A stretch of 64,000 nt of DNA, taken from contig CAVQXL010000005.1 of the NCBI GenBank assembly GCA_963717865.1, forward strand, positions 337,716 through 401,715. The letters are read 5' to 3'. This document shows positions 3,411 to 22,292 of this stretch, one piece after another. The stretch comes from Candidatus Aminicenantes bacterium. GTDB lineage: Bacteria; Acidobacteriota; Aminicenantia; Aminicenantales; Saccharicenantaceae. The notes below the pieces were generated by a model. It was given only the letters and a program-made list of their open reading frames with translations. It was not told the DNA's origin and made no database searches. Every line of letters begins with the position of its first letter. Within the stretch, counting starts at the first letter, position 1. The translations under genes were made by a program, and so were the position numbers.

Positions 3411-3438
3411 AGACCGCGCCGCCGCAGAGCTTTTCCGG

Positions 3439-4629
3439 ATGCCCTGGTCGGCCTCGGACAATGCCATGACCTGGCTCGAGCCGACCCGCAAGTGCAACAT
3501 CGCCTGCGACGCCTGCTTTGCCACGAACGATCCTCAAAGCGAGAAGCCGCTGGAGCGCATCCAGGCCGAGATCCGGTCGATGCGCCGCCTGCGCCGCTCC
3601 GACGGCATGTTCATCGCGGGCGGGGAGCCCTTGACCCATCCCCGGATCCTGGACATCGTCCGGCTCGTCCGGGCCAGCGACTATAAGCCCGTCCTCGTCA
3701 CGAACGGGGTCGGTCTGACTTCCGTCCGGGTGAAGGACCTGAAGCTGGCCGGCTTGTTCGGCTTCACTTTCCACGTCGATAGCCACCAAAACCGGCCCGG
3801 CTGGAAGGGGAGGGATGAGAAGGCCCTTAACGCCCTGCGGCAGGAGCTGGCCGACATGGTCCTCGAGGCCGGCGGGATGGTCTGCGGGTTCAACCTGACC
3901 GTCTTCCCCGATACCCTGGACCAGATGCCCGATGTCGTGGCCTGGGCTTTGCGCAACATCGACCGTGTCCAGTCCTACACTCTGACCGCCCTACGACAGG
4001 TCGACCCGGAGTTGCCGTTCGACGCTTATGTGGGCGGCCGGAAGCTCGACCTGGCCGGGACCGTCTACTTCTCGCCGGGGCCGCGGCGCAACCTGATGTC
4101 CGAGGACATCCTGGCCCAGGTCCGAAGGATCATGCCGGACTACCGCCCGAGCGCGTTCCTGGGGGGGACGGTCCGGCCGCACGCCCTGAAGCTGGCCATG
4201 GGCTCACGCATCGGAACGACCCGGGAGTCCTTCGGCAACCTGGGACCGAGAAGCATGGAGTTCCTACAGAGCGCCCATCACTGGCTGAAAGGGACGTACC
4301 TGGCCTTTCCCCGCCCCGGCTTCAGCCGGAAGGGCCGGTCCGCCTTCCTGTTCGCCGTTTTCGACGCCGAGGTCCGGCGGGCGCTGGGAGCCTACCTGCG
4401 CGCCGCGGCCCGCGCCCCCTGGATCCTCTTCCGCCGGGTCCACGTCCAGAGCCTCAACATCGAGCAGGCCTTCGACGTCCTGCCCAACGGCGAGCAGGAC
4501 CATTGCGACGGCTGCCCCAACAAGACCCTCTGGGGCGACCGGCTCGTCTCGGCCTGCGTCCTGGACGAGTACATCAAGTACGGGGCCCAGGCCGTGCTCG
4601 TGCCCAAGGCCCGGGCCGAGGGGTCTTGA
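3439..4629 (+). CDS. radical SAM enzyme, paralog 1 (HpnH-like organisation)
   Basis: CX3CX2C motif CNIACDAC at residues 19-26, [34 protein letters not shown], and C-terminal CDGCPNK...C cluster. 396 aa. Paralog of 6321..7517. Confidence 0.8.
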   Translation: MPWSASDNAMTWLEPTRKCNIACDACFATNDPQSEKPLERIQAEIRSMRRLRRSDGMFIAGGEPLTHPRILDIVRLVRASDYKPVLVTNGVGLTSVRVKDLKLAGLFGFTFHVDSHQNRPGWKGRDEKALNALRQELADMVLEAGGMVCGFNLTVFPDTLDQMPDVVAWALRNIDRVQSYTLTALRQVDPELPFDAYVGGRKLDLAGTVYFSPGPRRNLMSEDILAQVRRIMPDYRPSAFLGGTVRPHALKLAMGSRIGTTRESFGNLGPRSMEFLQSAHHWLKGTYLAFPRPGFSRKGRSAFLFAVFDAEVRRALGAYLRAAARAPWILFRRVHVQSLNIEQAFDVLPNGEQDHCDGCPNKTLWGDRLVSACVLDEYIKYGAQAVLVPKARAEGS

Positions 4630-4631
4630 TC

Positions 4632-5756
4632 ATGGGCGGCGCCGTCGAGATCCGTGAGGTCGGGACGAAGCGCGAGCTGCGGGCGTTCATCCGCCTGCCA
4701 TGGGCCCTGCATGCCGGCCACGACCGATGGGTGCCGCCCCTGCTGGCCGAGGAGCGGGCCTTCTTCCGGGCGCAGTCGAACCCCGCCTTCGCCTACTCCG
4801 ATACGCTTCTCCTGCTGGCCCGGCGCAACGGCGTCGCCGTCGGCCGCGTCATGGGCATCGTCAACCGCCGCTATAACGAAGCTAAGGGGGACAGCCAAGC
4901 CCGCTTCGCCTGTCTCGAGTGCGGCGACGACCTCGATCTCGTCCGGCGGCTTCTCGGCCGGGTGGAGGAGTGGGCCCGCGGTTTGGGTCTGCGGCGTCTG
5001 GTCGGCCCGCTCGGCTTCACCGACCAGGATCCGCAGGGCTTCTTGATGGACGGGTACGAGCACGAGCCCTCCATCGGGACCTACGTCAACCTTCCTTATA
5101 TGCCCCGCCTGATGGAAGCCCTGGGCTACGACAAGGAGATGGGATACGTCGTCTACCGGATCGACCTGCCGAGGCAGGTCCCCGAGTTCTACTGCAAGGT
5201 GGCGGAGCGGGCGGCCCTCAAGAGCGGCGTCCTCCTCCTCGACATCCGGCGCCGCCGCGAGCTCCGGCCGCACATCCGTCCGGTCCTGGTCCTGATGAAC
5301 GAATGTTTCCGAGAGCTCTACGGCTACTCCGTCCTCGATGATCGGGAGATGGAAGCGCTGGCCCGCCGCTTCCTCCCCGTCCTGGACCCCCGCTTCGTTA
5401 AGATCGCCGTGCGAGGCGGAGAAGTCGTGGGTTTCAACATCGCCATGCCGAACCTGGCCGAGGGCTTCCGCCGCGCCGACGGCCGGCTGTTGCCCCTGGG
5501 CTTCCTGAAGCTCCTCCGGGCCGGGCGCCGGACGCACCAGCTCGACACCCTTGTCGGGGGGGTCCGGGCCGATTTCCGGGGCAAGGGCATCGATGCGATG
5601 ATCGGCTGCGCGACCATGGCCGCGGCCATCGAGGCCGGGTTCGAGTTCGTCGACAGCCATCACGAGCTCGAATACAACCAGAAGGTCCGCAGCGAGATGG
5701 AGCGGCTGGGCGGCCGGATCTACAAGTCCTACCGCATCTTCCGCAAGGATTTGTGA
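4632..5756 (+). CDS. GNAT-fold (acyl-CoA N-acyltransferase-like) protein, 374 aa
   Basis: ATG 4632 lies 2 nt after the previous stop (TGATCATG). N-terminal IREVGTKRELRAFIRLPWALHAGHDRWVPPLL is typical of a large two-lobed GNAT-like family. The stop overlaps the next gene start. Confidence 0.5.
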   Translation: MGGAVEIREVGTKRELRAFIRLPWALHAGHDRWVPPLLAEERAFFRAQSNPAFAYSDTLLLLARRNGVAVGRVMGIVNRRYNEAKGDSQARFACLECGDDLDLVRRLLGRVEEWARGLGLRRLVGPLGFTDQDPQGFLMDGYEHEPSIGTYVNLPYMPRLMEALGYDKEMGYVVYRIDLPRQVPEFYCKVAERAALKSGVLLLDIRRRRELRPHIRPVLVLMNECFRELYGYSVLDDREMEALARRFLPVLDPRFVKIAVRGGEVVGFNIAMPNLAEGFRRADGRLLPLGFLKLLRAGRRTHQLDTLVGGVRADFRGKGIDAMIGCATMAAAIEAGFEFVDSHHELEYNQKVRSEMERLGGRIYKSYRIFRKDL

Positions 5757-5764
5757 GGAGGCCC

Positions 5765-6298
5765 ATGCGAGCCCGCTTCGATCGCTGGCTGATGGAACGG
5801 CCGCTGCGGGGCCCTGTGATCTTCCTGGGCCGCTGCGGCCTGCGGCCGAACGCGGTCACTGCGACCGGGCTGGCATTGGGCGCGGCGATCCCCGTGCTCC
5901 ACCAAGCCCGGCGATTCGGCTGGGTCGCCGCGGCCATGATCGTCCGGCAACTCCTGGACTGCCTGGACGGGGAGATCGCCCGCCGCTTCCGGCTCGAATC
6001 GCGGGCCGGCGCGGTCCTGGACTCCGTTTCCGACGGGTTCTTCTTCTTCGCCCTGGTCTGGCTCGCGGCGTCCCGCTTCTCCGGCCGGGTCGCCGTCGAC
6101 TTGGCCTTGACCGCGGGGGCGCTCGCGATCCTGGCCGCGATCCATGTCGCATTCTGCGGGCTCGCCGCGCTGACCGACCACTCGGTGAAAACCTACGACA
6201 CGCCGTCCCTCTACCGGAAGAGCTACGCCTTCCTGATCAGCAACAGCATGCTTTTCGTGCCCGCGCTCGCCGGGCTCTACCTGGGGTTCCCGGAATGA
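5765..6298 (+). CDS. CDP-alcohol phosphatidyltransferase family membrane protein (alternative GTG start 5753)
   Basis: Motif DGEIARRFRLESRAGAVLDSVSD fits D-G-x2-A-R-x8-G-x3-D-x3-D. The protein is hydrophobic, with GGAGG 3 nt before ATG 5765. Confidence 0.75.
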   Translation: MRARFDRWLMERPLRGPVIFLGRCGLRPNAVTATGLALGAAIPVLHQARRFGWVAAAMIVRQLLDCLDGEIARRFRLESRAGAVLDSVSDGFFFFALVWLAASRFSGRVAVDLALTAGALAILAAIHVAFCGLAALTDHSVKTYDTPSLYRKSYAFLISNSMLFVPALAGLYLGFPE

Positions 6299-6320
6299 GG
6301 ACCGCGATGGAGGACTCCCG

Positions 6321-7517
6321 TTGAGCATAGACCGCCGGCGACTCTATCGGTTTCCATGGTCCAAGACCGACAACCCGGGCGGCTGGGTGGACGTCACGGA
6401 CGTCTGCAACCTGCACTGCCCGCTCTGCTACCGGGTCTCCCGGGAGGGGCACCGCCTGCTGGGGGAGGTCCTGGCCGACGTCGACGCTTGCCGGGCCATG
6501 ACCAACTGCGACGACATGAAGATCGCCGGGGGCGAGCCCCTGACCTATCCGCACCTGCTCGACGTCGTCCGCCATATCGCCAACCGCGGGATGAAGCCGT
6601 TCCTGCTGACGAACGGCATGGGCCTCGACCGGGTGATGGTCCGGTCCCTGGCGGCGGCGGGGCTCTGCAAGTTCAATTTCCACGTCGATTCGGGTCAGAA
6701 CCGGCCGGGATGGGAGGGAAGGACCGAAGCGGAACTCAACGGGCTGCGGCAGTCCCTGGCCGACCTCGTGGCCGGGGTGCGCGGCCTTGGCTGCGGCTTC
6801 AACGTCACCGTCTCGCCCGCCAACCTGCCGGACCTCCCGGACGTCCTGGGTTGGGCCTTGCGCAACGTCCGGATCGTCCACCACATGACCTTGATCGCCT
6901 TACGCGGGATCGCTGTCGGCGACGACGTGGCCCTGTTCGCCAACGGTCGGCGCCTGCCGGACGGGCTTCTCCCCACGGCGGCCCCGGACGCCGGCTCGGT
7001 CGGACTGACGACGGACGATCTCCTGCAAAGCCTGCGCGGCCGCTACCCGTCCCTGGTTCCCTCGGCCTACCTCAACGGCGCGGCCTTCCCCGAGACCAAC
7101 AAGTACCTCGTCTCGGTGCTGATCGCCTCGCGGCGCGAGCTTTTCGGCTCGCTCGGCCCCAAGTCGATGGAGATCGTCCAGACGGCCATCCACCTCGTCC
7201 GCGGCCGCTACGCGGCCATCACCCGGCGGACCAAGGCGGGTCGGAAGACGTTCTTGCTGGCGGCCTTCGACGCGGAGGTCCGGCGTGCCCTGGGGCGATA
7301 CCTTCGTTCTGCCGTCCGCCGCCCGTGGCGCCTGCTCGACGGGATCTACATCCAGTCCATCGCCCTGGAGCAGCCCCTCGAGATCCTCGACGGCGAGGCC
7401 AACGTCTGCGACGACTGCATCAACATGATGATCCACCGCGGCCGCCTCATCCCGTCCTGCCGGTTGGAAGAATACCGGACGTTCGGCTCGGCCCTGACGT
7501 CCCAGAAGATCGTCTGA
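6321..7517 (+). CDS. radical SAM enzyme, paralog 2 (HpnH-like organisation), TTG start
   Basis: CX3CX2C motif [42 protein letters not shown], and C-terminal [18 protein letters not shown]. 398 aa. A GGAGGA RBS lies 6 nt before TTG 6321. Confidence 0.8.
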
Positions 7518-7665
7518 GCCGTCGGCTGTCGACCCAGGACGTCCGCAGGAGGCTCAGCTCCTTGTCGTCTTTCGCGGCGTTTGCCCGGAAAAACCCCGCT
7601 CTACCTCAAGGAGACGGAATTCCGATATAATCATCGCCGGTCAAGACCGTGTGAGGAGAGATCCC

Positions 7666-7800
7666 ATGAAAGACGTTATGATCGCGGGTGCCGTCCGAAC
7701 GGCCATAGGAAAATTCAATGGCACGCTATCGGGTACTCCGGCCGTCCGGCTGGGGGCTATAGCTATTAAAGAGGCTCTCAAGCGGCGAGGAACATCGCTT
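7666..7800 (+). pseudogene. acetyl-CoA acetyltransferase (thiolase) N-terminal stump
   Basis: [42 protein letters not shown] matches a thiolase N-terminus but the frame collapses after about 45 codons. A GAGGAG RBS is present. An unrelated C-terminal tail (..[34 protein letters not shown]) ends at 7922. Confidence 0.6.
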
Positions 7801-7953
7801 CCGTCGCGGGAGCGAAGGGCGACGTCCTCGAGGCGATCGTGGACAGAATGGTCAAAGAAAAGAACGTCCGATTGGAATATGCCCAGGAGCTCTTGAAGGA
7901 ATATTCCGGCAAGAAGTCCTGATGAGCGCGATCCGGATGAAAGGGGGACTCAA

Positions 7954-9193
7954 ATGCATTTAACGGAACAGGAAAAAGCGATCCTGGCGGGCGCGGAAGG
8001 GGAAGCCCCGAAGCTGGCCATGGAGATCCTGCAAAAGGTGGGAGAGATCAACGAGGCGGAGAGATTGATCCCGATCCAGAGCGTGCACCTTGTCCTGCAC
8101 GCCTACAAAAGCGCATTTGACGCGGGCGTCGACGCGGCCGTCAAGATCGCCGAGATGGGCGGCAAGTTCACCGTGCCCACCACGATCGACCCTTACGGGA
8201 TGGACGCCGAGGACTGGAAAGGGGCGAGGACCCCGGAACACTATGCCAAACAGCAGATCAGGCTGGATGAGGCCGTGTCGAAGATGGGCGTCCTGCCGGT
8301 TTGGACATGCACTCCTTATTACGGGTTCAACGTGCCGCGATTCGGAGACCATATCGCCTGGTCTGAATCGTCCGCCGTCGCCTATGCCAACACCGTGATC
8401 GGCGCGAGGACCAATAGGCAGACGGCCATCGTCGACATTTGCTGCGGCATCCTGGGGAAGGTCCCCGAGACCGGGTTGCACCTTCAGAAGAACCGTTACG
8501 GGGAAGTCCTGATCCGCTTCGATGTCGACAGGGAGCTCGAGTCATGGGAATTTCCGGCTCTCGGCTATCTCCTCGGCAAAAGGCTCGGCAGCCGGATCGG
8601 CGTCGTCCATGGAATGAAAGGCGCTCCGAAGCACGAGGCCCTCAAGTCTCTCTGCGCCGCGGCGGCCGCCGCCGGCTCCGTGACCCTGCTCCATATCGTC
8701 GGCGTGACGCCGGAGGCCAGGACGCTGGAAGAGGCGTTCGGGCCCAATAAGCCCGTCGAGGAATTCACGGGTCACGGCCGATGATCTGATGCAAACGCGC
8801 CATGATATGTGCACCTATAAAGGCGACAAGATCGATTTTGTCGCGCTGGGCTGTCCTCACTACACCATCAACGAGATCGTCAATGTCCACAATCTGCTCA
8901 AAGGGCGCAAGGTGAATCCCGGGACCCATTTCTGGATCTATGCCAATAGCTACGCTATCGACCTGGCGGAGCAAATGGGTCTGCGCAAGTCGCTGGAGGA
9001 AGCGGGCGTCGTCATCCGCGCGGAAACATGCATGATCATTTCGCCGATAGCCAATTGGGGCTTCAAAACGCTGATGACGGATTCGGGGAAGTGTTCCTAT
9101 TATGGCCCGGCGGAATGCGGCACGGAGATGATCTTCGCCGGCGTGGATGAATGCGTGGAAGCCGCCGTTTCGGGCAAGCTATCGAAATCGTAG
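7954..9193 (+). CDS. aconitase X catalytic subunit (AcnX large, DUF521), apparent frameshift at ~8780
   Basis: ORFs 7954..8784 and 8789..9193 are consecutive pieces (..PVEEFTGHGR / DLMQTRHDMCTYKGDKIDFVALGCPHYTINEI..). Together they are about 410 aa of AcnX/mevalonate-5-phosphate dehydratase-like sequence. Confidence 0.75.
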
Positions 9194-9208
9194 GACAGGG
9201 GTGGAGCT

Positions 9209-9628
9209 ATGAGAAAGATATCGGGGAGAGGCGTCATCGAAGGCACGGCCAAGGGGGAGGCGATCGTTTCGACCCAGCCTTTCGGCTTTTTCGGAGGCGT
9301 GGATCCGTCGACCGGACGGGTCATCGATAAACGCCACGAGCTTTATGGGCAGAACATCAAAGGGAAGATCATGGTATACCCTGAAGGCAGGGGCTCGACC
9401 GTGGGCGCCGCGGTGGTTCTGGAGCTGATGCGCACAGGCTGCGCTCCGGCGGCCATCATCAACGTGAAGATAGAGACCATTACCGCGGCCGGCGGCTTGA
9501 TGGCCAAGAAGTTCTACAACAAAGACATCCCCATGGTGGATCGCCTTTCCGAAGATCCGGTCAAGGCCATAAAGACCGGCGATATCGTCGAAGTGAACGG
9601 CACCACGGGAGAAGTGACCATTTATTGA
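9209..9628 (+). CDS. aconitase X swivel-domain subunit (AcnX small, DUF126)
   Basis: 139 aa (..GEAIVSTQPFGFFGGVDPSTGRVID..KIMVYPEGRGSTVGAAVVLEL..) immediately after the large subunit. Confidence 0.75.
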   Translation: MRKISGRGVIEGTAKGEAIVSTQPFGFFGGVDPSTGRVIDKRHELYGQNIKGKIMVYPEGRGSTVGAAVVLELMRTGCAPAAIINVKIETITAAGGLMAKKFYNKDIPMVDRLSEDPVKAIKTGDIVEVNGTTGEVTIY

Positions 9629-11779: not shown

Positions 11780-12400
11780 ATGGTCATAACCAACGTTGCC
11801 AGGAAGATCGAATATTTTCATGCCTCGAAGTATGGAAATGGAACCATGGTTGCGGAAGAGTTCAAGAAACAGATGGCCGCCAAGGGGGTCGCTGTCATCG
11901 TCCATCATGTCAGGGATGTGAGGCCAAAGGAATTTCATGCCTCGAAGTATGGAAACGGAGCCATGGTCGCGGAGGAGTTCAAGAAGCAGATGGCCGCCAA
12001 GGGGGTCACGGTCAACGTCCATCACATCCGGGATGCGAGGCCAAAGGAGATGCCGCCGGCCGACCTGTACCTGTTCAGCTCACCGGGGCGCATGGGCAAG
12101 CCCATCGGACGCATGCGCCGTTTCCTGAAGAAGGTCAAGCTGCCGTCGGGAACGAAGTACGCCATCCTGACCACCGAGGGCGCCCCTCGGCCGGACAAGA
12201 AGACCGGACGGATGCCCACCGAAGAGGAGCTGGCCAAGTGGCAGCGCGTCATCCCTATCATGAACGAAATACTGCAGGAAAAGGGCCTGGTCAAGGTCGC
12301 CGAGGGCAAGATCCTGGTGACCGGCCTCAAGGGGCCGCTGGAAGAGGGCTGGCAGAAGAAAGTGGAAGCCTTCGCATCCCAGATCCCCATCCTGCCTTAA
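11780..12400 (+). CDS. flavodoxin-like fold protein with internal in-frame 117-bp tandem duplication
   Basis: AAAAGGAGG RBS 7 nt before ATG 11780. KIEYFHASKYGNGTMVAEEFKKQMAAKG resembles the flavodoxin/WrbA N-terminus. A 39-aa segment is duplicated. Confidence 0.55.
   Translation: MVITNVARKIEYFHASKYGNGTMVAEEFKKQMAAKGVAVIVHHVRDVRPKEFHASKYGNGAMVAEEFKKQMAAKGVTVNVHHIRDARPKEMPPADLYLFSSPGRMGKPIGRMRRFLKKVKLPSGTKYAILTTEGAPRPDKKTGRMPTEEELAKWQRVIPIMNEILQEKGLVKVAEGKILVTGLKGPLEEGWQKKVEAFASQIPILP
11816..12049. repeat. 2 x 117-bp tandem direct repeat (~88% identical) inside flavodoxin-like CDS
   Basis: Unit 1 is 11816..11932 and unit 2 is 11933..12049. Both begin TTTCATGCCTCGAAGTATGGAAA. Confidence 0.85.
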
Positions 12401-12423
12401 TGCCCCGGCGGGTGAGGGCGATA

Positions 12424-13254
12424 ATGAACGGCAGAAAACTCATAGCAGGCATGTTTTTGATCGGGCTCTTGTCAGGGATCGCGCCCGCGTCCCCATGGGG
12501 CGAACCCGGCAGCGCCCTCCAGCCGGGTTATCATCTCGGGGGGAAGTATCTCTTGAACTTCGCCCCGGATTTCAAGAACATCGTCGTTTCCCCGTTCCAC
12601 TGGAAGGGGCGAGACGCGCTCCTATTCGGCGGCACCGCGGCGCTTACGGGTTTGCTGTATGCCTACGATGGGGACATCGGTCGATGGGTCCTGGACCATC
12701 GATCGCTCACGTCGAACGGCACGACCCGCTTCCTGACCCATCTCGCCGAGCCGCCGGCCATGCTGGGTCTGATCACGACGATGTACGCCACGGGCGAGGT
12801 CTTCGGCAAGCCGGGGCTGAGGCGAACGGCCCTGCTCAGCCTGGAAGCCTATGTCCTCCACTCCGCCACCAGCAGCTTCATAAAATTCATCACGGGGCGT
12901 TTGCGCTATGAAGCGGGCGAAGGTCCCCATTCCTTTCATCCATTCTCGATCGACTTCTCCAAGACATCTTTCCCTTCGGGCCATTCCGGCTCGATCTTCT
13001 CCGTGGCCGCGGTCATCGCCGGGGAAGCCGACAGCTGGGCCGTCGGCGCCCTGGCCTACGGCGTGGCGGGATTGGCGGCCATTTCGCGATTGCACGATAT
13101 GGACCATTGGGCCTCCGACATCCTGGCGGGGTCGGTCCTGGGTTTTTTCATCGGCAAAATGGTGCGGCATCTCAATCCGCACCGGGGGGCGGATTCTCCC
13201 GGCGCGGCGGGCGGGCGCGGGCCGGTCGGATTTTCCCTGTCGTTTCGATTCTGA
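12424..13254 (+). CDS. PAP2-family phosphatase (phosphatidic acid phosphatase type 2-like), alternative start 12400
   Basis: Signal-like N-terminus MNGRKLIAGMFLIGLLSGIAPASP. PAP2 motifs FPSGHSGS and SRLHDMDHWASDILAG. Confidence 0.75.
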   Translation: MNGRKLIAGMFLIGLLSGIAPASPWGEPGSALQPGYHLGGKYLLNFAPDFKNIVVSPFHWKGRDALLFGGTAALTGLLYAYDGDIGRWVLDHRSLTSNGTTRFLTHLAEPPAMLGLITTMYATGEVFGKPGLRRTALLSLEAYVLHSATSSFIKFITGRLRYEAGEGPHSFHPFSIDFSKTSFPSGHSGSIFSVAAVIAGEADSWAVGALAYGVAGLAAISRLHDMDHWASDILAGSVLGFFIGKMVRHLNPHRGADSPGAAGGRGPVGFSLSFRF

Positions 13255-13350
13255 AGAAAGGTCCAACGACCGATGTCCTCACCCCAAGGAGATGCTGAAA
13301 AAGGCCTTTTTTGGGGACAAATTGGACACAAACTGAAAAGTCCGAACAAA

Positions 13351-13380
13351 AGAGCCCCTTGTGCTTTTCTAGGGCAGGAC
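13351..13380 (+). promoter_or_regulatory. putative sigma70-type promoter (TTGTGC-N17-CATAAT) for amidohydrolase gene
   Basis: Hexamers seen 10-40 nt upstream of ATG 13390. Confidence 0.3.
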
Positions 13381-13389
13381 CCATAATCA

Positions 13390-14337
13390 ATGATGCATAA
13401 AAGGTCCGGGGTGGCAGCGCGCGTGAAATTCCTGAAGCTTTCGGTCATCTTTTTCGCCGCGGCCGGACTGTCCTGCGGCCGAGGCAAGACGGAACGCCCG
13501 CCCATGATCGATATGCACCTGCACGCGTTCAGCTTGGCCGACGGATCTGCCCCGCCGGAGAATCCGGTGACCGGGCGACCGTCCGCTTCCCGAACAACCG
13601 CGGAGCTTCGCGAGGCATCGCTGGCGGCGCTGGCGCACTACAACATCGTCAAGGCCTGCACCAGCGGTCCGCCGGAAACGGTCGCCCAGTGGCGTGCGGC
13701 GGCGCCGGATCGTGTGCTGGTCGGCGTGCATGTCGATGAGAATAACCCGCTGCCCGACTTAGCCTCGCTCCGAGCTGACATACTGGCGGGGCGCGTCCAT
13801 GTCCTCGGCGAGCTCGTCCTTCAGTACGTGGGCATGGGCCCCGACGATCCGCGGCTGGAACCATATTACGAGCTGGCCGAAGAGTTGGACATCCCCGTTG
13901 CCATCCATACGGGCATCGGCCCCCCTGGAACGCCCTATCTTCCCGGCCTCCAGGGCTTCCGTGTGACCCTGGGGAATCCGGCTCTCGTCGAGGACGTGCT
14001 CGTCCATCATCCGCGTCTGCGCGTCTACCTGATGCACGGGGGAGCTCCATACCTGCAGGAGACGAAGGCCATCCTGTCGGTGTATCCGCAGGTTTATCTG
14101 GATCTCGCGACGATTAATTGGATCCTGCCTCGCCAGGAGTTCCACAACTACCTCCACGAGCTCATGGTGGCGGGCTTCGGCAAGCGGCTGCTGTTCGGTT
14201 CGGATCAGATGTTCTGGCCCGAAGCGATTGGAATGGCCATCGAGGGGATCGAATCCGCCTCGTTCCTGTCAAAACAGGAAAAGCGCGACATCTTCTATAA
14301 CAATGCCGTCCGCTTCCTCAAGATCGAAGGGAAGTAA
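13390..14337 (+). CDS. amidohydrolase-2 family TIM-barrel metal-dependent hydrolase, lipoprotein-type signal
   Basis: 315 aa. The lipobox-like LSCG follows the signal peptide. HxH-type metal site (IDMHLHAF) and further His/Asp ligands. Confidence 0.65.
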   Translation: MMHKRSGVAARVKFLKLSVIFFAAAGLSCGRGKTERPPMIDMHLHAFSLADGSAPPENPVTGRPSASRTTAELREASLAALAHYNIVKACTSGPPETVAQWRAAAPDRVLVGVHVDENNPLPDLASLRADILAGRVHVLGELVLQYVGMGPDDPRLEPYYELAEELDIPVAIHTGIGPPGTPYLPGLQGFRVTLGNPALVEDVLVHHPRLRVYLMHGGAPYLQETKAILSVYPQVYLDLATINWILPRQEFHNYLHELMVAGFGKRLLFGSDQMFWPEAIGMAIEGIESASFLSKQEKRDIFYNNAVRFLKIEGK

Positions 14338-14564
14338 CGCTCGGACTCGCGCTGAGCCGGCCCACGGCTCCTTGGCCCCTTCCCGCCGGTTTCAGCGTCA
14401 TTGACATCCGATGATCCCCCGATCTATCATGCACAATTCGGGGATGAGACGATCTCGGTTCCAAAAACGCTCATAATGCCGGCGAAACAGAAAAAAGCCG
14501 TTGCTGATGCTTCAACACACGCCGACGGGACGGCGCGAGACTGAGGTTCTGATCGGAGCCCATC

Positions 14565-16644: not shown

Positions 16645-17211
16645 ATGATGCAAAACAAGAACATTATCCGTATTGTGCTCGCGACCGCGTTCATTCTGCT
16701 GCTGCCCCTGTTGGCGATGCAGATCACCGATGAAGTGGTCTGGGACCTGGCCGATTTCGCTGTCGCCGCCGTCCTCCTGCTCGGCACTGGTCTCATGTAT
16801 GAGCTGGTAGCGAGGAAGGGGGACAATGTTGCGTACCGCGCCGCCGTCGGCGTTGCGCTTGCGGCAGCGCTCTTCCTCGTCTGGATGGCCCTTGCTGTCG
16901 GCATCCTCGGAGTCGAGGGCGACCCCGCCGACTTGATGTATATCGGGGTGCTTGCCGTCGGAATCATCGGTGCCATCATTGTGCGCTTCCAGCCGCATGG
17001 AATGGCACGCGCATTGTTCGCGACGGCGACCGCTCAGGCGTTGGTCGCCGTGATCGCGCTGATTGCCGGAATGCAGCATGCCGAGTTCAGCTCCGTGTCA
17101 GAAATCTTGGGGGTTAATGGGCTCTTCGTCGCGCTGTGGGTCGTATCGGCTATGCTGTTTCGACGCGCGGCGCGCAAGCGCAACGGACCCGGCGTGGAAC
17201 CAACGGCTTGA
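16645..17211 (+). CDS. hypothetical integral membrane protein
   Basis: 188 aa with 5-6 hydrophobic helices. Starts 15 nt after the etfA stop. Confidence 0.5.
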   Translation: MMQNKNIIRIVLATAFILLLPLLAMQITDEVVWDLADFAVAAVLLLGTGLMYELVARKGDNVAYRAAVGVALAAALFLVWMALAVGILGVEGDPADLMYIGVLAVGIIGAIIVRFQPHGMARALFATATAQALVAVIALIAGMQHAEFSSVSEILGVNGLFVALWVVSAMLFRRAARKRNGPGVEPTA

Positions 17212-17260
17212 CGGACGGCTGATCGCGCGATAGACGTCAATTCCACTTCCCTTTTGAACT

Positions 17261-17359
17261 ATATCTTATCCCCCAACCCCCTTACAATAAGGGGGCATTT
17301 GTCAGCCTCGCGGGCAGGGAGTGGTGGGCGATAGAGGAATTGAACCTCTGACTCCTACC
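17261..17359. repeat. 99-bp direct repeat copy 1 (partial tRNA-Val 3' half plus 61 nt of flank), att-like
   Basis: 98/99 identical to 20034..20132. Contains ..TGGTGGGCGATAGAGGAATTGAACCTCTGAC.. which is the 3' half of tRNA-Val. Confidence 0.85.
17269..17295. repeat. hairpin repeat TCCCCCAACCCCCTTA-CAA-TAAGGGGG (variant of the C-run/G-run family)
   Basis: Identical copy at 20042..20068. Both lie inside the 99-bp att-like repeats. Confidence 0.7.
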
Positions 17360-17367
17360 CAATAATG

Positions 17368-19812
17368 TTAGAATTCCGCGATAAGGGAGAACCATTTCCC
17401 CGCGGATGAGCCCCACACTTCCTTATAGGTAGCCGTATTGAACTGAGGCCAATAGGGCGTATCCTCATTGCCTCGCGACTCCATGCCGACAGGGATCGCC
17501 CCGACCATTTCGCCCGGCAGGGCCGTGTAGAGCTGCGGATAATTGCTGCCTTCTCCCCAGATCAGGGACTGCCCAAAAGGATTTCGGCCGACGATCCAGA
17601 AGAGCTGCTGTTCGGCGATGTTCATCAGTTCCTTGTCGTTGAGAAACTTCCCGCAGAGAGCGGCGGCCTTGCCGGTCGCGAGGTGCACGGCCGCATTTCC
17701 CTTGAATGAGAACCAGACCGGGAAACGGCGAAGATAATGGTCTTCATCCAGCCGGATCCCGTTTTCGAGCTGTTCCTTGAAATCGGCGGAAAGATCCGCG
17801 TCCGGGCCGATCCTCGGATGGCTCGCGAGGAAATTCTCCTTGTCCTTGGCCTCGTCTTTCTGATACACGCCGCTGGGGATCATGCCATAGGGCTGGACGT
17901 ACCGATAGATACTCTTCAAATATCCGCCAAACAACCGGATCGCGTTCTCCCACGCCGCGTGATCGGAGTGATGCGGTTGCGTCTCGCAGAGGGCGGTCAG
18001 CGCCTGCATATAGACCTGGTCTCTCGACTGGTGGTTGAAGTGCACGATCGATTTCCGGTCGAGGTCCCGGTAGAAGAATCCGGCGGTCCTGTTGGCATCG
18101 TTGAGCGGCTCCGTCCGCTGACACTGAAGCGCGTACTTGATGCTCTCGGCCGCCTTGTCGGCGTAAGGCTTCTCATTCGTCAGCTTATAGAGCATGCTCT
18201 CCGCCCAGGACATGGTCGCCATGTACTGGCTGCGGGAAGTCATGCCGCTGTGCCCGGGGTTCCCCGAGCTCATCTCCTTGAACCCGAGCTCGGCGAAACG
18301 CTTTTCCGCGAACCCGAAGTCTTCTTTCGCGATCTTGCGGAGGTTTGCCGCGAGCAGCGGGTCGTTCGCGATCGACATCGAGGCATAGGCCTCGATGCCC
18401 GACAGCAGGAAATTCACAAAGCCGCTGTTCGAGGCCCTCACCTGGCGCCGGCCCGCGTCGTCCGTGGACCCGATATAGCCGTCCGTCCACAGGTTCGTCC
18501 CCCATCCCTGGAAGCGGTCCCCGTTCTCGAGCCTCGTCCTCATGACCACGTCCAGCCCCCAGAGGGCCTCCTCCATCAGGCGCAGGTAGAGATCCGTGTC
18601 GCCCTTTTCCTTCGCCCTGTTCGCCATTTCGAGCATGGCGAAGGCGATCTCGCCCGTCTGCGCGAATGACTGGGACATGTCGGCGGCGTCATGCCAGCCG
18701 CCGTTCACGGGATAGACGCGCCCCCGGTATTCGCCGTGCAGCTCCGTGTGGCAGGAGCCGTGCTTGCCGGGCACCGGATAGCCGCAGCGCTCGCAGAACA
18801 TGAAATTGAGCACGCGCCAGGCCGAGTCATCCCATAGATTATCGTCGATATAAAATGGCGCCGTCGTGATGTCCCCGACCCTGATCCGATATCGCCCCTT
18901 GCGGCCAACCGAGGAGAAATCGGCCGTATCGAAGCCTCCGAGACTCGTCTTGACCGGCTTGATGTCCCCCTCATAGACGACCTGAGAGGTCGCATCATCC
19001 ACGATCTGGAACGTCCCTTTGTGCTTGGCGACATTGACGATGGCGGATTTCTCGCTGTCGGGGCGATATCCGGAGGTCGAGAAGATGATCCTGTTTCGAG
19101 CCGGCTTCCACCCGCTCACGACCTCCGGCTCGTCGACGACCTGCAAGGCCACGTTGGAAACGTCGAATTGCAGGAGATCCCCCATCGTGAGTTCCTTCCC
19201 AAAGACTTCGATGGCAAAGGATATCTTGGTGACCTTGTCGCGCGGCAGTTCCGACATCTCGACAAAGCATTCGTTCCATTGGCCGTTGATCAGGTTCATC
19301 TCATGATACCCTTCCCGGCCGTAGATGTCCGGCACCTTGGTCTTCCCGTCGTTCTCCACATAGAGGTTCAGATAGACCGTGCGGGCGCCTTCGCAGTCCG
19401 GATAAACGTAGAGATGGATGCGGTTGTACTTCTCCCAGTTCTTGCCGCCCACGTCGAAGGTGGCCATGGACGTTCCCCGGCCAAGGCCCCATTTGGGCAT
19501 TTCATCGACATAGCTGGGCGCCGTCAATCTCAGGCTGTGCTTCCCGGAGATGCTTCTTTCGGCGGTCTGAGAGATGCTTCCGATGCCGCTGTGCGACCAT
19601 GGGCTCATGTCTTCCATGTCGCAGAGCACATCGGAGATCAGCACGATTTTCGTGAGCCCAAAAGTCTCGAAAGACTTGCTGAAGTCAAGCGGCAACGGGC
19701 TGTGAATGTATCCCGTGCCGCGGATATCGTCCTTCAGCTTCTCATCCACCTGCGGAAATAGTAAGGACGAGCTGCAGAGAATGATCAGGGCTATGATCTT
19801 CAATTCTCTCAT
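17368..19812 (-). CDS. secreted (alpha/alpha)6-barrel glycoside hydrolase, GH9-like, with N-terminal Ig-like region (lower-GC)
   Basis: 814 aa, intact, with signal peptide MRELKIIALIILCSSSLLF. NGGWHDAADMSQ resembles the GH9 GGWYDAGD box. GC is clearly lower than the flanks. Confidence 0.5.
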   Translation of the reverse strand: MRELKIIALIILCSSSLLFPQVDEKLKDDIRGTGYIHSPLPLDFSKSFETFGLTKIVLISDVLCDMEDMSPWSHSGIGSISQTAERSISGKHSLRLTAPSYVDEMPKWGLGRGTSMATFDVGGKNWEKYNRIHLYVYPDCEGARTVYLNLYVENDGKTKVPDIYGREGYHEMNLINGQWNECFVEMSELPRDKVTKISFAIEVFGKELTMGDLLQFDVSNVALQVVDEPEVVSGWKPARNRIIFSTSGYRPDSEKSAIVNVAKHKGTFQIVDDATSQVVYEGDIKPVKTSLGGFDTADFSSVGRKGRYRIRVGDITTAPFYIDDNLWDDSAWRVLNFMFCERCGYPVPGKHGSCHTELHGEYRGRVYPVNGGWHDAADMSQSFAQTGEIAFAMLEMANRAKEKGDTDLYLRLMEEALWGLDVVMRTRLENGDRFQGWGTNLWTDGYIGSTDDAGRRQVRASNSGFVNFLLSGIEAYASMSIANDPLLAANLRKIAKEDFGFAEKRFAELGFKEMSSGNPGHSGMTSRSQYMATMSWAESMLYKLTNEKPYADKAAESIKYALQCQRTEPLNDANRTAGFFYRDLDRKSIVHFNHQSRDQVYMQALTALCETQPHHSDHAAWENAIRLFGGYLKSIYRYVQPYGMIPSGVYQKDEAKDKENFLASHPRIGPDADLSADFKEQLENGIRLDEDHYLRRFPVWFSFKGNAAVHLATGKAAALCGKFLNDKELMNIAEQQLFWIVGRNPFGQSLIWGEGSNYPQLYTALPGEMVGAIPVGMESRGNEDTPYWPQFNTATYKEVWGSSAGKWFSLIAEF

Positions 19813-20033
19813 GCCGTGTCTCCTTCAAAGCGAAATCGCCGAACACCGTTGAATTAATATCATGGGCGAATTTAAGGGGTCAATCCCTATTTTAGCTGAA
19901 AAACTGCGAACCTCTTAAGCCATGGGCCTGGGTTTTCATGCTCCTGGCGTGGCCGTTCGCGGAAATCTTCGCGCACTCCAGCGAAGGGCATCTTCACGGC
20001 GAAGAGGTCCCGCGAGGCTCCCGACTGGGTTCA

Positions 20034-20132
20034 TATCTTATCCCCCAACCCCCTTACAATAAGGGGGCATTTGTCAGCCTCGCGGGCAGGGAGTGGTGGG
20101 CGATAGAGGAATTGAACCTCTGACTTCTACCG
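20034..20132. repeat. 99-bp direct repeat copy 2 (overlaps intact tRNA-Val 3' half), att-like
   Basis: See 17261..17359. Confidence 0.85.
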
Positions 20133-20171
20133 TGTGAAGGTAGCACTCTACCTCTGAGTTAATCGCCCACG
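20095..20171 (-). tRNA. tRNA-Val (anticodon CAC), CCA encoded
   Basis: Reverse complement GTGGGCGATTAACTCAGAGGTAGAGTGCTACCTTCACACGGTAGAAGTCAGAGGTTCAATTCCTCTATCGCCCACCA folds as a cloverleaf with anticodon loop TTCACAC. 77 nt. Confidence 0.9.
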
Positions 20172-20230
20172 GCACGGATATTTTACGTTATTCCGGGGTG
20201 AAGTCAATTTCCTGGGGCCCTGTCCTGGCC

Positions 20231-20592
20231 CTACTTGGCCGCCGGGTCTTCCTCGAACAGCCCGAACGTGTTGCCTTCCGTGTCGGAGCACATAGCCGTC
20301 CAACCGACGCCCGGGATGGGCATCTTGGGCGTCAAGCCTTGCCCCGGCCGTCGACCTTTTTCAGGAACTCGAGGACCGAGGGCACCTGGATCGAGTTCTG
20401 GGTCTGGTCCGAGGGTTGCCGTCTCGGGCCGATGCCGCCGTTGATCCCGGGCTGGTCATCCGGCCCCGTAGTGACCAGCCAATAATCCATCCCGGGCCAG
20501 CCTTCGGCCTTCCAGTCGAAGACCTCCCCGTAGAACTTGACGGCCCTGGCCGTATCGTCCGCCATGATGTTGAAGTGAACGACGCGATTCAT
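20231..20592 (-). CDS. VOC/glyoxalase-family protein, apparent frameshift mid-gene
   Basis: N-terminus MNRVVHFNIMADDTARAVKFYGEVFDWK.. is in ORF 20332..20592. The C-terminus ..KMPIPGVGWTAMCSDTEGNTFGLFEEDPAAK* is in a second frame ending at 20231. Confidence 0.7.
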
Positions 20593-20638
20593 TGCTCGCT
20601 CCTCTTCCCCGTCCTATGATGAATGCCGGCCCTTGGAC

Positions 20639-21633
20639 TCAGTCCTTAAGGCGATATCCCTTCTCTTGAAACAGCTCGAGGCAGGCGTCGACCGCTTCGG
20701 GATCATACAGGGTCCCCTTTTTTGCCGAGATCTCTTCCAGCGCCTTATCGATCCCCAATGTTGCCCTGTAAGGGCGATGGGACGCCATCGCTTCGACGAC
20801 ATCGGCGACGCCGATGATCCTTGCCTCGAGCAATATGTCCTCCCCCTTTAGGCCCTGAGGATATCCTGATCCGTCAATGCGCTCATGATGCTGGAGGATG
20901 ATGTCGGCGACCGGCCAGGGGAGATCGACCGTTTTGAGGATGTCATATCCGGATATAGGGTGAAGTCTGATAAGGCGGAATTCGGCATCCGTCAACTTGC
21001 CCGGTTTTGCGAGGATCTCGGCAGGGATCGAGATCTTCCCTATGTCGTGGATGGTGGCCGCCAGGCGGACGGCATCGACTTGGATTTCGGACAGCCCCAT
21101 GTCTTTCGCTATGGAGCGGGCCAGGTCGGCCACACGGTCCTGGTGACCTGCCGTGCCCGGATCTCTTCTTTCGACGACCTCCTGGATGACCGTAATGATT
21201 CCCCCCAACGCGGTTCGCAGTTTGGCCAGGGTACTTTGAAGCTGTTCCTGGGAGGTTTTCTTATCGGTGATATCGAATACCATATGGAGATAGACCCCTC
21301 GACCGCTCTGAGTCCGGAAGATCGTGGGATAGATCCTGGAATCCATCCATCTTCCATGCTCGAGGATCGTAGAATTCGACGATTTCGGCGTTCCCCGATT
21401 TTACAGCGATCTCCAGGGGACAGCCGGGGAAGTTCCCCTCGATACCGTGGATCAGCTCTGGGACAGTACTTGCCGACGATCTGACAGTTATCCAGGCCGA
21501 GGGTCCTATTCGTCGCATCATTGGCTAAAACGATGTGATGGCAATCATCCACGAGCAGGACGTAGAAATCGAGGGCATCGATGATGTTCTGGATCAGCTC
21601 TTGATTCCGGCCGGTGATCGTTTTTTCGAACAT
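20639..21633 (-). CDS. PAS-domain HD-GYP phosphodiesterase (c-di-GMP), two apparent frameshifts in PAS region
   Basis: The C-terminal 235 aa carry HD..HHERIDGSGYP. The PAS segments (ELIQNIIDALDFYVLLVDDCHHIVLANDATN.. and CPLEIAVKSGNAEIVEFYDPRAW) lie in two other frames. Confidence 0.7.
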
Positions 21634-21677
21634 GAGCTCGAATGCCGCCAGGGGTGGGGACGATCGTCGTCCGCGAA

Positions 21678-22154
21678 TCACGGGAAGAGCTTGTTGGCCG
21701 CCTCGGCGAGATTTTCAGCGTAAGCGATGCAATCCGCCTTCGCCTGCTCGTTCGGCGCCCCAAGGCTGACCGGGCCGAAGTAGTTCCGGCTCGGGTTGCC
21801 CTGGATGAGCATGCCGTGGATGAGAAACGCCCGGAGGATCCCCATGAGAGTCGATTCGTTGCCTCCCCCGAGGTAGGCGCAGGACGTGAAGGCCCCGCCG
21901 ATCTTGCCGATCAGCTCTCCGTGAAGCTTGACGGTCTCGTCGAGGAACTTCTTCACGGGCCAGGCGATCGAACCGTACACGGTCGGAGAGCCGACGAGTA
22001 TGCAATCGAAATTCTTCAGCTCTTCGATGACCGTTTCCGTGACGGATTTGGTAGTGACCTCGACGCCGCATTGTTTGAGAGCGTCCGAAATGATCTTAGC
22101 CATTTCCTGGACGTTCCCGGTCTTCGTGTAGTAACAGACGAGCGCCTTTGCCAT
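21678..22154 (-). CDS. flavodoxin-family (FMN-dependent reductase-like) protein
   Basis: MAKALVCYYTKTGNVQEMAKIISDALKQCGVEVT.. matches the flavodoxin-like fold. 158 aa, lower GC. Confidence 0.7.
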   Translation of the reverse strand: MAKALVCYYTKTGNVQEMAKIISDALKQCGVEVTTKSVTETVIEELKNFDCILVGSPTVYGSIAWPVKKFLDETVKLHGELIGKIGGAFTSCAYLGGGNESTLMGILRAFLIHGMLIQGNPSRNYFGPVSLGAPNEQAKADCIAYAENLAEAANKLFP

Positions 22155-22256
22155 GTGATCCCCTCCTCCCGACCATTCTACTTCCGCGGCCTCTCCAATG
22201 ACAATACCTCTCCTGGGGCCCTCGGACGGACGGGGAGCCGGGCGGCGAAACTCCGA

Positions 22257-22285
22257 TTGACAAGCGGCAAAATTCTCAATATAAA
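22257..22285 (+). promoter_or_regulatory. putative sigma70 promoter TTGACA-N17-TATAAA, only ~7 nt before ATG 22293 (leaderless-like)
   Basis: Hexamers read directly from the sequence. Confidence 0.4.
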
Positions 22286-22292
22286 TTAGTTA

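Follow-up and report, generated by a model that had tools for sequence, protein, structure and literature searches.

A 2.7-kb segment with a single GH9-family glycoside hydrolase gene in Candidatus Aminicenantes is probably a decayed, integrase-less integrative module, that is a CIME-like islet, at tRNA-Val(CAC), and its structure is of a known kind, namely that of tRNA-linked islands and their decay products. The segment lies in a 64-kb stretch of DNA, referred to here as the window, whose host is identified as Candidatus Aminicenantes by related contigs, and it is a single unit of a larger composite variable region of ~13.3-22.3 kb. The striking repeat that bounds it would thereby be explained as a scar of site-specific recombination. 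The module and its borders are made up of the following features:

16645-17211, plus strand: membrane-protein gene, 188 aa; the insertion site's conserved left flank
17248-17260, no strand: linker of 13 nt, unique to the window; left boundary of the variable region
17261-17359, minus strand: repeat copy 1, attR-like scar; 38-nt tRNA-Val 3' fragment plus 61-nt F
17261-17321, minus strand: F within copy 1, 61 nt, identical to the F of copy 2
17322-17359, minus strand: tRNA-Val 3' fragment within copy 1, one mismatch, at 17354
17360-17367, minus strand: junction of GH9 stop and tRNA fragment, 8 nt, no integrase-binding P arm
17368-19812, minus strand: GH9-family glycoside hydrolase gene, 814 aa (Pfam Glyco_hydro_9, CelD_N)
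19813-20032, minus strand: GH9 upstream region U, candidate promoter at 19856-19883 (TTGACC-16-GATATT)
20033-20131, minus strand: repeat copy 2; tRNA 3' part 20094-20131 and F 20033-20093
20094-20168, minus strand: tRNA-Val(CAC), intact, CCA encoded (ARAGORN)
20180-20207, minus strand: putative sigma-70-like promoter of tRNA-Val (TTGACT-16-TAAAAT; consensus scan, 10/12 matches; function inferred)

The direct repeat described in the earlier note is real, its copies being identical at 98 of 99 positions with a spacing of 2772 nt and a sole mismatch (C at 17354, T at 20126), although copy 2 had been placed one base off, at 20034-20132 instead of 20033-20131. As had been read from the sequence, copy 2 runs from about tRNA position 38 to the encoded CCA and on through 61 nt of downstream flank (F), which agrees with the ARAGORN call of the tRNA, and copy 1, which holds only part of a tRNA, is passed over by ARAGORN. 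No other direct repeat of more than 31 nt was reported in 15-23 kb. The tRNA 3' part is thus duplicated and an intact tRNA is restored at one end; tRNA-Val(CAC) is the attachment site and, for the DNA on its left side, the attL-type junction. The tRNA body is identical (74/74) to that of the relatives L005-L007, L018, L050 and L095, and the same promoter motif precedes tRNA-Val in L008 and L011. F holds the hairpin CCCCCTTATTGTAAGGGGG, then TTGGGGGATAAGATAT, with an ordinary folding energy (z = 0.07), and many relatives have an F-like flank after tRNA-Val or a fragment of it, whether GH9 is present or not. Two other identities considered for F were rejected: it is no intrinsic terminator, since the 9-bp hairpin has no U tract and is not called by a terminator scan, and no dispersed repeat, since it is confined to this locus in the window and the first ten loci.

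The claim of one intact, secreted (alpha/alpha)6 hydrolase gene encoding 814 aa is borne out by matches to Pfam Glyco_hydro_9 (PF00759; 4.6e-20, 72.8 bits, cut-off 27.7) and CelD_N (PF02927; 2.6e-12, 47.8 bits, cut-off 24.6), secretion resting on an N-terminus that looks signal-like by eye rather than by predictor. This hydrophobic N-terminus is followed by an uncharacterised region of ~240 aa, the Ig-like CelD_N domain and the GH9 catalytic domain, in the order that marks membership of the family. Solved GH9 structures are distant matches only (best 8.6e-13), and an exact look-up of the protein gave no match; the closest homologues are 84-94% identical, with one protein of the 89% cluster named Candidatus Aminicenantes, and those at 68-75% are named Bacteroidales, Parabacteroides, Tannerellaceae and Prevotellaceae. 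Between the repeats there is no convincing gene besides GH9 and no recombinase. GH9 is probably expressed from its own candidate promoter in U, a region that is conserved jointly with GH9 in L001 and L005-L007; the first ~27-35 nt of U beside F (~19998-20032) also come after F ahead of a PASTA gene in L005 and, GH9 being absent, in L018.

A metagenome scan with the tRNA 3' end as query shows that tRNA-Val(CAC) is a heavily used integration hot spot in uncultured Aminicenantes. Two tyrosine-integrase families adjoin tRNA-Val in relatives and match Phage_integrase with SAM-like N-terminal domains, which upholds the reading of the repeat as an att-type duplication. The 385-aa integrase of family A (L103:89-1243; Phage_integrase 4.7e-33) is encoded by a gene whose 3' end lies across the complement of the tRNA 3' end, and remnants of this gene end are present in ~18 loci. 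Of family B (368 aa; 5.6e-24), L019 and L135 have intact genes, and those of L001 and L002 are pseudogenes with frameshifts. One conserved 34-nt P arm (attP arm) is carried by 42 tRNA fragments (mean pairwise identity 0.74); in 38 of 40, one or both of the fixed offsets -115/-104 are occupied by a GTGCCCAAA-like half-site, and in 20 both are. All four junction classes are present: tRNA with F (11), tRNA with integrase 3' end (8), P arm-fragment with F (11) and P arm-fragment with integrase 3' end (4). Furthermore, ~29 small modules of 1-5 ORFs are bounded by copies of the tRNA end and lack an intact integrase, their small size owing partly to short contigs and short fetched flanks. A clean insertion polymorphism is seen between L005 and L006 (contigs 97-99% identical), which differ by a 1.6-kb cassette that carries an RCC1 gene, duplicates 31 nt of the tRNA and is present only in L005, and tandem accretions occur in L005, L088 and L099. 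Two genes beside tRNA-Val that had been candidates for divergent integrases were rejected, the 420-aa product in L005 being a secreted RCC1-repeat protein and the 355-aa product in L011 a beta-propeller-like protein. The comparison shows how the tyrosine integrases of the clade act: they join element DNA to the tRNA over the stretch between roughly the anticodon loop and the 3' end, the tRNA is made whole again, and the other end of the insert carries an incomplete tRNA copy. Through recurrent insertions, accretion in tandem and deletions, the locus has become a mosaic of small modules between copies of the tRNA-Val end.

Two parts are missing from the GH9 module. The integrase gene that tRNA-targeting islands carry inside the element, usually beside the tRNA-proximal end, is absent, as the earlier note had it, and searches of the whole window, the module included, by HMM and phmmer (with the two locus integrase families and XerD) found no tyrosine-recombinase-like ORF. 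The far repeat (copy 1) is also without the 34-nt P arm and the arm-type half-sites of the 42 related fragments: the GH9 coding end and 8 nt occupy the P-arm position, tRNA similarity begins only at GGTAG, and CACACGG, with which the conserved core opens, lies 5' of the point where the tRNA part begins. An attR of family A has the P arm TTTTCTGCNCTTTAGCTTTTTCCGCCGCTTCCTA directly 5' of CACACGGTAGAAGTC and GTGCCCAAA half-sites ~150 nt upstream, an arrangement that copy 1 does not show; without the P arm and with a tRNA part starting 3' of CACACGG, the far repeat is therefore not a typical attR of this family. At the corresponding position L011 and L073 have 115-190 nt and a full P arm. The lack of an integrase-binding arm makes the module probably a fossil and, together with the lack of an integrase, most likely immobile alone.

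How the GH9 unit, consisting of F, U, GH9 and the tRNA fragment, came to lie between the repeats can be pictured as follows. The unit would formerly have been a circle, in which the tRNA 3' part and F, the native downstream flank of the tRNA, together made up the attachment region. Most economically, GH9 would have stood beside the attachment site and been captured by aberrant excision or accretion, which would account for a host flank and a neighbour gene inside a repeat-bounded unit. In keeping with this, F and GH9 behave in L006, L122 and L124 as chromosomal flank beside the attR of other elements, so that GH9 may have been captured between att sites and not brought in as original cargo. 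The circle may then have been re-inserted at tRNA-Val, either by an integrase acting in trans or by homologous recombination over the ~100 nt of tRNA and F, and re-insertion would have given the 99-nt duplication. Loss or exchange of the module could still come about by recombination, either between its two repeats or by way of homology in the flanks.

The comparison of relatives bears on this picture in several ways. In the closest relative, L135 (ENA ERZ27297438 k141_2496404; flanks 96-97% identical, core dS 0.04-0.10), and the next, L066 (~90%), the interval from the same membrane-protein gene to tRNA-Val is filled with other DNA, the insert in L066 being an element of 4.7 kb in which both arms and 123 codons of an integrase remain. 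Synteny ends at 17247 with L135 and at ~17242 with L066, and the region of the membrane-protein gene is 97% and ~92% identical, respectively. This polymorphism of content at one site among close relatives assigns the GH9 segment to the flexible (strain-variable) genome. The comparison that the earlier note had proposed thus showed a difference in site content, but a strictly empty configuration (tRNA-Val, F, 13 nt, membrane gene) was found in none of the relatives. More distant relatives have GH9 beside tRNA-Val; since the linkage of tRNA-Val, F and GH9 is common to at least seven divergent lineages with a GH9 dS of up to ~0.48, the module is old in the clade. In L001 the order is pseudo-tRNA, F, GH9, glyoxalase-3' fragment and intact tRNA, from which no simple series of events was derived.

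Composition gives no clear mark of recent foreign import. The lower GC that the earlier note had remarked on is true (58.2% for the module against a window mean of 64.0%, SD 3.0% in 2.77-kb windows), but it is only modest, at the 5.7th percentile, and the neighbouring 20169-22289 is equally low (57.9%). GH9 has a GC3 of 0.80, inside the host range, and the tetranucleotide correlation of module and window (0.875 vs 0.939+-0.038, 11th percentile) is no outlier; the deviation in GC and tetranucleotides is a weak sign of foreign origin.

The variable region extends to both sides of the module, where it includes the following features:

13309-14337, plus strand: remnant of another tRNA-Val cassette, truncated P arm, then amidohydrolase gene
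13309-13333, plus strand: truncated P arm with arm-type half-sites, of the same remnant
13390-14337, plus strand: amidohydrolase gene of the same remnant
20231-22154, minus strand: variable segment on the tRNA 5' side with glyoxalase-like, PAS-HD and flavodoxin genes
20231-20599, minus strand: glyoxalase-like gene, apparently frameshifted
20639-21634, minus strand: PAS-HD gene, apparently frameshifted
21678-22154, minus strand: flavodoxin gene

The remnant at 13309-14337 is 90% identical to a single-gene amidohydrolase cassette that lies between tRNA-Val and a tRNA fragment in L099; the homology ends inside the P arm, which is of the family A type, at 13309, and the segment 12390-14376 is missing from L135. 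The segment at 20231-22154 is absent from L135, L066, L018, L050 and L095, in which a Zn-ribbon gene or other DNA adjoins tRNA-Val, and a scan of the genome collection with the PAS-HD protein returned one locus only. Taken together, the earlier proposal of a minimal or degraded island that delivered an enzyme holds in its att-type repeat, its flexible locus and its missing integrase, but the island reading is only partly supported, owing to the host-like GC3, the age of the module, the arm-less far repeat and the larger composite of which it is a unit.

Among other histories, it is conceivable though unlikely that GH9 is an ancestral neighbour of tRNA-Val, with F-U-GH9 as native flank that was never cargo and with the downstream fragment and F as debris of a lost tandem element, in which case the 'island' would be merely an accident of scar placement. 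In L006, L122 and L124, F-U-GH9 comes after a P arm (or element) and a tRNA fragment, and F and GH9 thus act as the B' flank of other elements. The host-like GC3 points the same way, as do a kinase element downstream of GH9 in L073 that ends in P arm-fragment-F, and the rise of GH9 dS with lineage distance (0.16-0.18, then 0.33-0.48), which fits vertical descent with losses too. However, the two closest relatives are without GH9 at this junction, and there is no GH9 downstream of tRNA-Val/F in L018, L034, L036, L099, L102 and L129. Moreover, tRNA copies bracket GH9 in two divergent lineages, that of the window and that of L011, and the joint GAATTCTRA NNNTATTGG followed by GTAGRAG, at which the GH9 stop meets the fragment, is common to the window and L005, L006 and L007, as expected of the joint of a closed circle.

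Quite improbable is that a diverged Aminicenantes lineage was the source of the whole block ~17248-22289, taken in as one piece by homologous recombination in the conserved flanks, with the repeat pre-formed in the donor. What recommends this history is that the two F copies, exactly identical to each other, are only ~80% identical to the F of L135, and the tRNA end differs as well, despite flanks that are 96-97% identical. For the favoured reading of an integrative module, the F copies and the 61 nt of non-tRNA flank in the duplication are ill-suited to a simple single integration into an L135-like empty site, and gene conversion, a donor from the same population or import en bloc would be needed. 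The arrangement of flavodoxin/HD/glyoxalase, tRNA and GH9 is also present in the L001 and L005-L007 lineages, against which GH9 has a dS of 0.16-0.18 and most flanking genes a higher one (0.19-0.84; PAP2 at 0.19 and another at 0.21 are close to GH9). As a gauge of recent horizontal transfer dS points neither way, since GH9 is always at the low end but rises with lineage distance, and the flanking genes are very heterogeneous. Yet the HD, glyoxalase and flavodoxin genes of the window are far more diverged from these lineages (dS 0.6-0.84) than GH9, so that no single known donor fits. Hardly credible is an origin of the structure in misassembly or in a tandem duplication on the spot, with tRNA-Val copies collapsed or doubled: the repeat is near-perfect and apparent frameshifts in two neighbouring genes leave the assembly quality of the window no certainty, but independent assemblies from different samples repeat the design, with GH9 bracketed by tRNA-Val and its 3' fragment in L011-L013 and with variants in L001-L004, dozens of contigs have tRNA-Val fragments with element arms, and a tandem duplication would have doubled GH9, of which a single copy is present.

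The analysis places a presumed polysaccharide-degrading enzyme among the strain-variable genes of a phylum that is uncultured and lives in sediments, and for which mobile elements are, to our knowledge, essentially undescribed. The comparison brings to light the heavily used tRNA-Val hot spot, with its two integrase families and its many tiny integrase-less modules of secreted and signalling proteins, which, if mobilised in trans, would be a route to exchange single adaptive genes within the phylum. More speculatively, and with a rather small chance of being right, the locus might be an integron-like platform, on which dozens of integrase-less modules of 1-3 genes, mobilisable in trans, are shuffled or exchanged between strains by one integrase family whose gene overlaps the att site, GH9 being an old arm-less member. 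Its cargo would then include secreted hydrolases, beta-propellers, peptidases and Zn-ribbon Ser/Thr kinases, and every module would keep a tRNA-derived core and a conserved arm with binding sites in fixed phase. Like integron cassettes, the locus shows arrays of promoter-poor modules of one to few genes with conserved recombination sites at their ends and a recombinase elsewhere. Unlike in integrons, the sites are tRNA-derived with lambda-type arms instead of attC hairpins, and a phage-type integrase, its gene overlapping the attachment site, takes part where no IntI/attI platform is seen.

Capture of GH9 as in the aberrant excision of lambda gal/bio (specialised transduction), or by accretion (Bellanger et al., 2011, as cited in PMC5704250), would be a purely inferential fit to the unit, and unlike the lambda case no phage or helper was found, the scan of viral contigs with the tRNA 3' end giving zero matches. 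As in classical tRNA islands and prophages, which tyrosine integrases insert in the stretch between anticodon loop and 3' end, the 3' part of the tRNA is duplicated and an intact tRNA restored at one end, and the locus shares with such islands the presence/absence polymorphism among relatives and the use of one tDNA by several integrase families; tDNA hot spots have been described for the Asn tDNAs of Klebsiella (PMC4891358) and for Sinorhizobium (PMC11476347). In contrast to classical islands, the module has 2.7 kb, one gene, no integrase and an almost host-like composition, and its cargo gene is widely conserved at the locus across the clade. CIMEs (cis-mobilizable elements), described for the ICESt1-related islands of Streptococcus thermophilus (review: PMC5704250), derive from an ICE or IME, retain functional attL and attR and are mobilised in cis once accreted with a functional element. 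They differ from the module in that the latter shows no sign of a conjugative ancestor, no conjugation genes being seen, belongs to an uncultured Aminicenantes host, has a far att site that has lost the arm-type region, keeping the core-type repeat (98/99) without P arm and half-sites at the fragment, and has a repeat that reaches 61 nt past the tRNA. Like a CIME, the module has att-type direct repeats at the 3' end of the target gene, holds GH9 as its sole convincing gene with a recombinase neither in the module nor in the window, lies at a locus whose counterparts in relatives clearly show related elements accreted in tandem, and would probably be movable only with outside help.

A repeat search of 15-23 kb returned a single long direct repeat, whose copies lie 2772 nt apart and agree at 98 of 99 positions (sole mismatch 17354 vs 20126). 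Reading the sequence directly confirmed the earlier note's observation of 99-bp repeats carrying the 3' part of tRNA-Val, with its coordinates correct for the first copy but one base off for the second, placed at 20034-20132. The features are as follows:

17261-17359, repeat copy 1, sequence read directly
20033-20131, repeat copy 2, sequence read directly
20094-20168, minus strand, tRNA-Val(CAC), called by ARAGORN
17368-19812, minus strand, GH9 gene, 814 aa, the sole convincing gene between the repeat copies
20207-20180, candidate promoter of tRNA-Val, consensus match only
19883-19856, candidate promoter of GH9, consensus match only

Taken with the ARAGORN call, the position of the repeat means that each copy comprises 38 nt of tRNA-Val, from immediately 3' of the anticodon through the encoded CCA, and 61 nt of downstream flank, termed F. 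Within F, a hairpin CCCCCTTATTGTAAGGGGG is followed by TTGGGGGATAAGATAT; a terminator scan and a folding test ruled out a canonical terminator. The GH9 stop codon lies 8 nt from the partial tRNA (the fragment), and the protein matches Pfam GH9 (4.6e-20) and CelD_N (2.6e-12), so that by domain content it can be taken as a bona fide GH9-family member, in line with the lone GH9-like hydrolase that had been proposed; to solved structures it is only distantly related. The closest GH9 homologues (84-94% identical) come from metagenome assemblies, and a cluster at 89% identity contains a protein named Candidatus Aminicenantes bacterium; homologues at 68-75% are by name from Bacteroidales, Parabacteroides, Tannerellaceae and Prevotellaceae, so that at some time the family has crossed between phyla. 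The neighbouring PAS-HD protein matched one locus among species-representative genomes, in the Candidatus Aminicenantes MAG L006. The lower GC that had been remarked upon is real but modest (58.2% in the GH9 module vs 64.0% in the window, the 5.7th percentile among 2.77-kb windows), while GC3 of the gene (0.80) is host-like and the tetranucleotide profile is no outlier. The lowest-GC 2.77-kb windows of the whole stretch begin at ~7750-7900 (56.4-56.5% GC). Across the whole 64-kb window the search for integrase-like ORFs found none, in agreement with what had been said of the island.

Searching metagenomes with the 3' end of the tRNA gave 120 stretches, many of them fragments rather than tRNA genes. 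A conserved 34-nt arm, TTTTCTGCNCTTTAGCTTTTTCCGCCGCTTCCTA (mean pairwise identity 0.74), here called the P arm, stands directly 5' of CACACGGTAGAAGTC in 42 fragments. Of the 40 with sufficient upstream sequence, 38 have a GTGCCCAAA-like half-site at one or both of the fixed offsets -115 and -104, which are 11 nt apart; both are occupied in 20. The pattern bears the signature of arm-type integrase-binding sites. Two integrase families are present, of which family A matches these sites. An intact family A gene (385 aa; Pfam Phage_integrase 4.7e-33) occurs in the related loci L103 (89-1243), L101, L016 and L085. At its 3' end the gene runs through the other arm and the complement of the tRNA-Val 3' end, yielding the C-terminus ...MVGDRGLEPLTSTV, and the attachment site therefore falls inside the integrase reading frame. 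Truncated remnants of this 3' end, found beside tRNA-Val or its fragments in ~18 loci, mark decayed elements. In L019 and L135, family B (368 aa, Phage_integrase 5.6e-24) is found 5' of the tRNA; in L001 and L002 it is a frameshifted pseudogene upstream of a pseudo-tRNA, F and GH9. All four expected junction classes were found, namely tRNA with F (11) or with the integrase end (8), and P arm-fragment with F (11) or with the integrase end (4), and tRNA-Val(CAC) is an attachment site for both families. Since F also follows tRNA-Val where no GH9 is near (e.g. L018, L034, L036, L099, L102, L129), it is the ordinary downstream flank of this tRNA in the clade.

Between successive tRNA-end copies lie ~29 closed modules of 1.4-6.4 kb with 1-5 ORFs (>=90 aa), a sample biased to small modules by short contigs. 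None of them holds an intact integrase; tandem accretion and decay generate such integrase-less modules. Their cargo includes Zn-ribbon Ser/Thr kinases with TPR repeats, BNR/PD40 and lactonase beta-propellers, S9 and M24 peptidases, amidohydrolase, RCC1, PASTA and GH9 proteins. Large Ser/Thr kinases of ~790-1240 aa that combine a zinc ribbon at the N-terminus with TPR repeats recur at the tRNA-Val locus, assigned by Pfam in L036, L122 and L073 and only by a similar zinc-ribbon N-terminus in L046, L050, L099 and L018. In L022 (1406-1590), L027 (both fragments), L074 and L086 a GC-rich insert of ~150 nt (CAGCGGCCGGGGCCCC...) interrupts the tRNA-derived core after ..GTAGAA; it may be a small mobile insertion targeting this core.

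At least seven divergent lineages (L001/L002, L005/L006, L007, L008, L011-L013, L080, L122/L124) have GH9 downstream of tRNA-Val(CAC) and oriented like it; the surrounding DNA is different in each of them and interspersed with tRNA-Val 3' fragments. L005 and L006 (97-99% identical) differ by an extra 1.6-kb insert in L005, consisting of one secreted RCC1-repeat gene and a 31-nt duplicate of the tRNA end, which is a clean insertion polymorphism. In L006 a PASTA-protein module separates the tRNA from a fragment followed by F and GH9. In L011-L013 the intact tRNA and F lie on one side of GH9 and a 55-nt tRNA fragment 330 nt past its stop: the window's layout recurs here in a lineage and in assemblies that are independent of it. 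F, the region upstream of GH9 (U, 19813-20032 in the window) and GH9 are situated outside the attR of other elements in L006, L122 and L124, and L073 has a kinase element downstream of GH9.

The L001 locus has a degenerate full-length tRNA-Val copy upstream of GH9 and, directly after the GH9 stop, a second copy of the glyoxalase-gene 3' end (12446-12672), followed by the tRNA upstream region and an intact tRNA-Val. L011 has an 18-nt 5' fragment of tRNA-Val with its native promoter (7514-7531); genes for a secreted propeller and an XRE-type HTH protein lie between it and the intact tRNA, which carries its own second promoter (9480-9588). Here the inserted DNA takes the place of the tRNA's 5' part, opposite to the usual orientation; the family B integrases (L019, L135, the L001 pseudogene) also lie on this 5' side.

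The closest relative, L135, found via the 188-aa membrane protein encoded beside the repeat, is 96-97% identical to the window (core dS 0.04-0.10) and colinear with it across ETF-beta, ETF-alpha and the membrane-protein gene up to 17247. Beyond this point it has 6.4 kb of other genes, an F-like flank with tRNA-Val, and then a family B integrase; GH9 is absent from the 20.5-kb locus fetched. A tRNA-Asp(GTC)-like 3' fragment (L135 10690-10735) marks the left edge of the 6.4-kb segment, ~90-130 nt from the end of synteny. The element that lies in L066 (~90% identical) between the same membrane gene and tRNA-Val is 4.7 kb long; it has both arms, a fragment of 51 nt, a 123-codon integrase remnant and metabolic cargo. 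With other DNA in both relatives, the GH9 unit (F, U, GH9 and the fragment) fills a demonstrably variable, att-bounded slot. The membrane protein itself (16645-17208) has no Pfam family and thousands of homologues, with matches at 70-80% identity that bear names from many phyla (Bryobacteraceae, Gemmatimonadota, TA06, Planctomycetes, Desulfatiglandales, Gammaproteobacteria), a cross-phylum conservation unusually high for a small membrane protein.

The island interpretation is thus partly supported, but its extent was drawn too narrowly, as the variable region reaches further. On the 5' side of the tRNA, 20231-22154 holds frameshifted glyoxalase, frameshifted PAS-HD and flavodoxin genes, a segment absent in L135, L066, L018, L050 and L095. 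Compared with intact homologues in L001 and L005, the glyoxalase-like frames shift near 20284-20344 and PAS-HD lies in three frames at ~21363-21461; the frameshifts of 20231-21634 either mark pseudogenes in a variable segment undergoing decay or are assembly indels. On the other side, ~6 kb from the tRNA, 13309-14337 comprises a truncated P arm with GTGCCCAAA-like half-sites and an amidohydrolase gene. L099 has a single-gene cassette of 90% identity to it, enclosed by tRNA-Val and a tRNA fragment; in L022 the gene likewise adjoins a tRNA fragment. Window segments 2111-7571, 7750-9620 and 12390-14376 have no counterpart in L135 and are thus further strain-specific insertions or deletions.

Several observations fit no simple account of the GH9 unit, among them the position of F, U and GH9 outside other elements' attR in L006, L122 and L124 and the kinase element of L073. 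The window's fragment lacks the P arm: after the GH9 stop come 8 nt and then the tRNA part, beginning at GGTAG. L005, L006 and L007 have the same joint, with the fragment further shortened to 8-13 nt. The two F copies are mutually identical and only ~80% identical to F of L135, against 96-97% for that relative as a whole, so that neither is a simple vertical ortholog. GH9 dS is 0.16-0.18 against L001, L006 and L007 (flanking genes 0.19-0.84) and 0.33-0.48 against L124, L080, L008, L011 and L122 (flanking genes 0.77-1.5), always at the low end of the flanking-gene range yet rising with lineage distance, which fits a slow, vertically inherited gene as well as exchange inside the clade.

The GH9 unit is bounded by copies of the tRNA end and variable among close relatives. 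As to its origin, GH9 would originally have stood beside the attachment site in the order tRNA-F-U-GH9, and aberrant excision, or alternatively recombination of the tRNA core with a site just beyond the GH9 stop codon, could have yielded a circle of the tRNA 3' part, F, U and GH9. If this circle re-inserted at tRNA-Val, whether through an integrase acting in trans or through RecA-type recombination across ~100 nt of tRNA and F homology, the 99-nt repeat would result. That the copies are so nearly identical suggests either a recent event in one population or gene conversion. Having neither arms nor integrase, the unit is most likely now a fossil, which might be lost by recombination between the repeats or replaced through flanking homology.

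The hot spot of many tiny integrase-less modules with conserved arms is a more interesting lead than the GH9 unit itself. The latter works like a classical tRNA-linked genomic islet, is not typical of the family A elements, and resembles a CIME incompletely, its att arm not being intact at the far site; it is a further case of an already known kind of structure.
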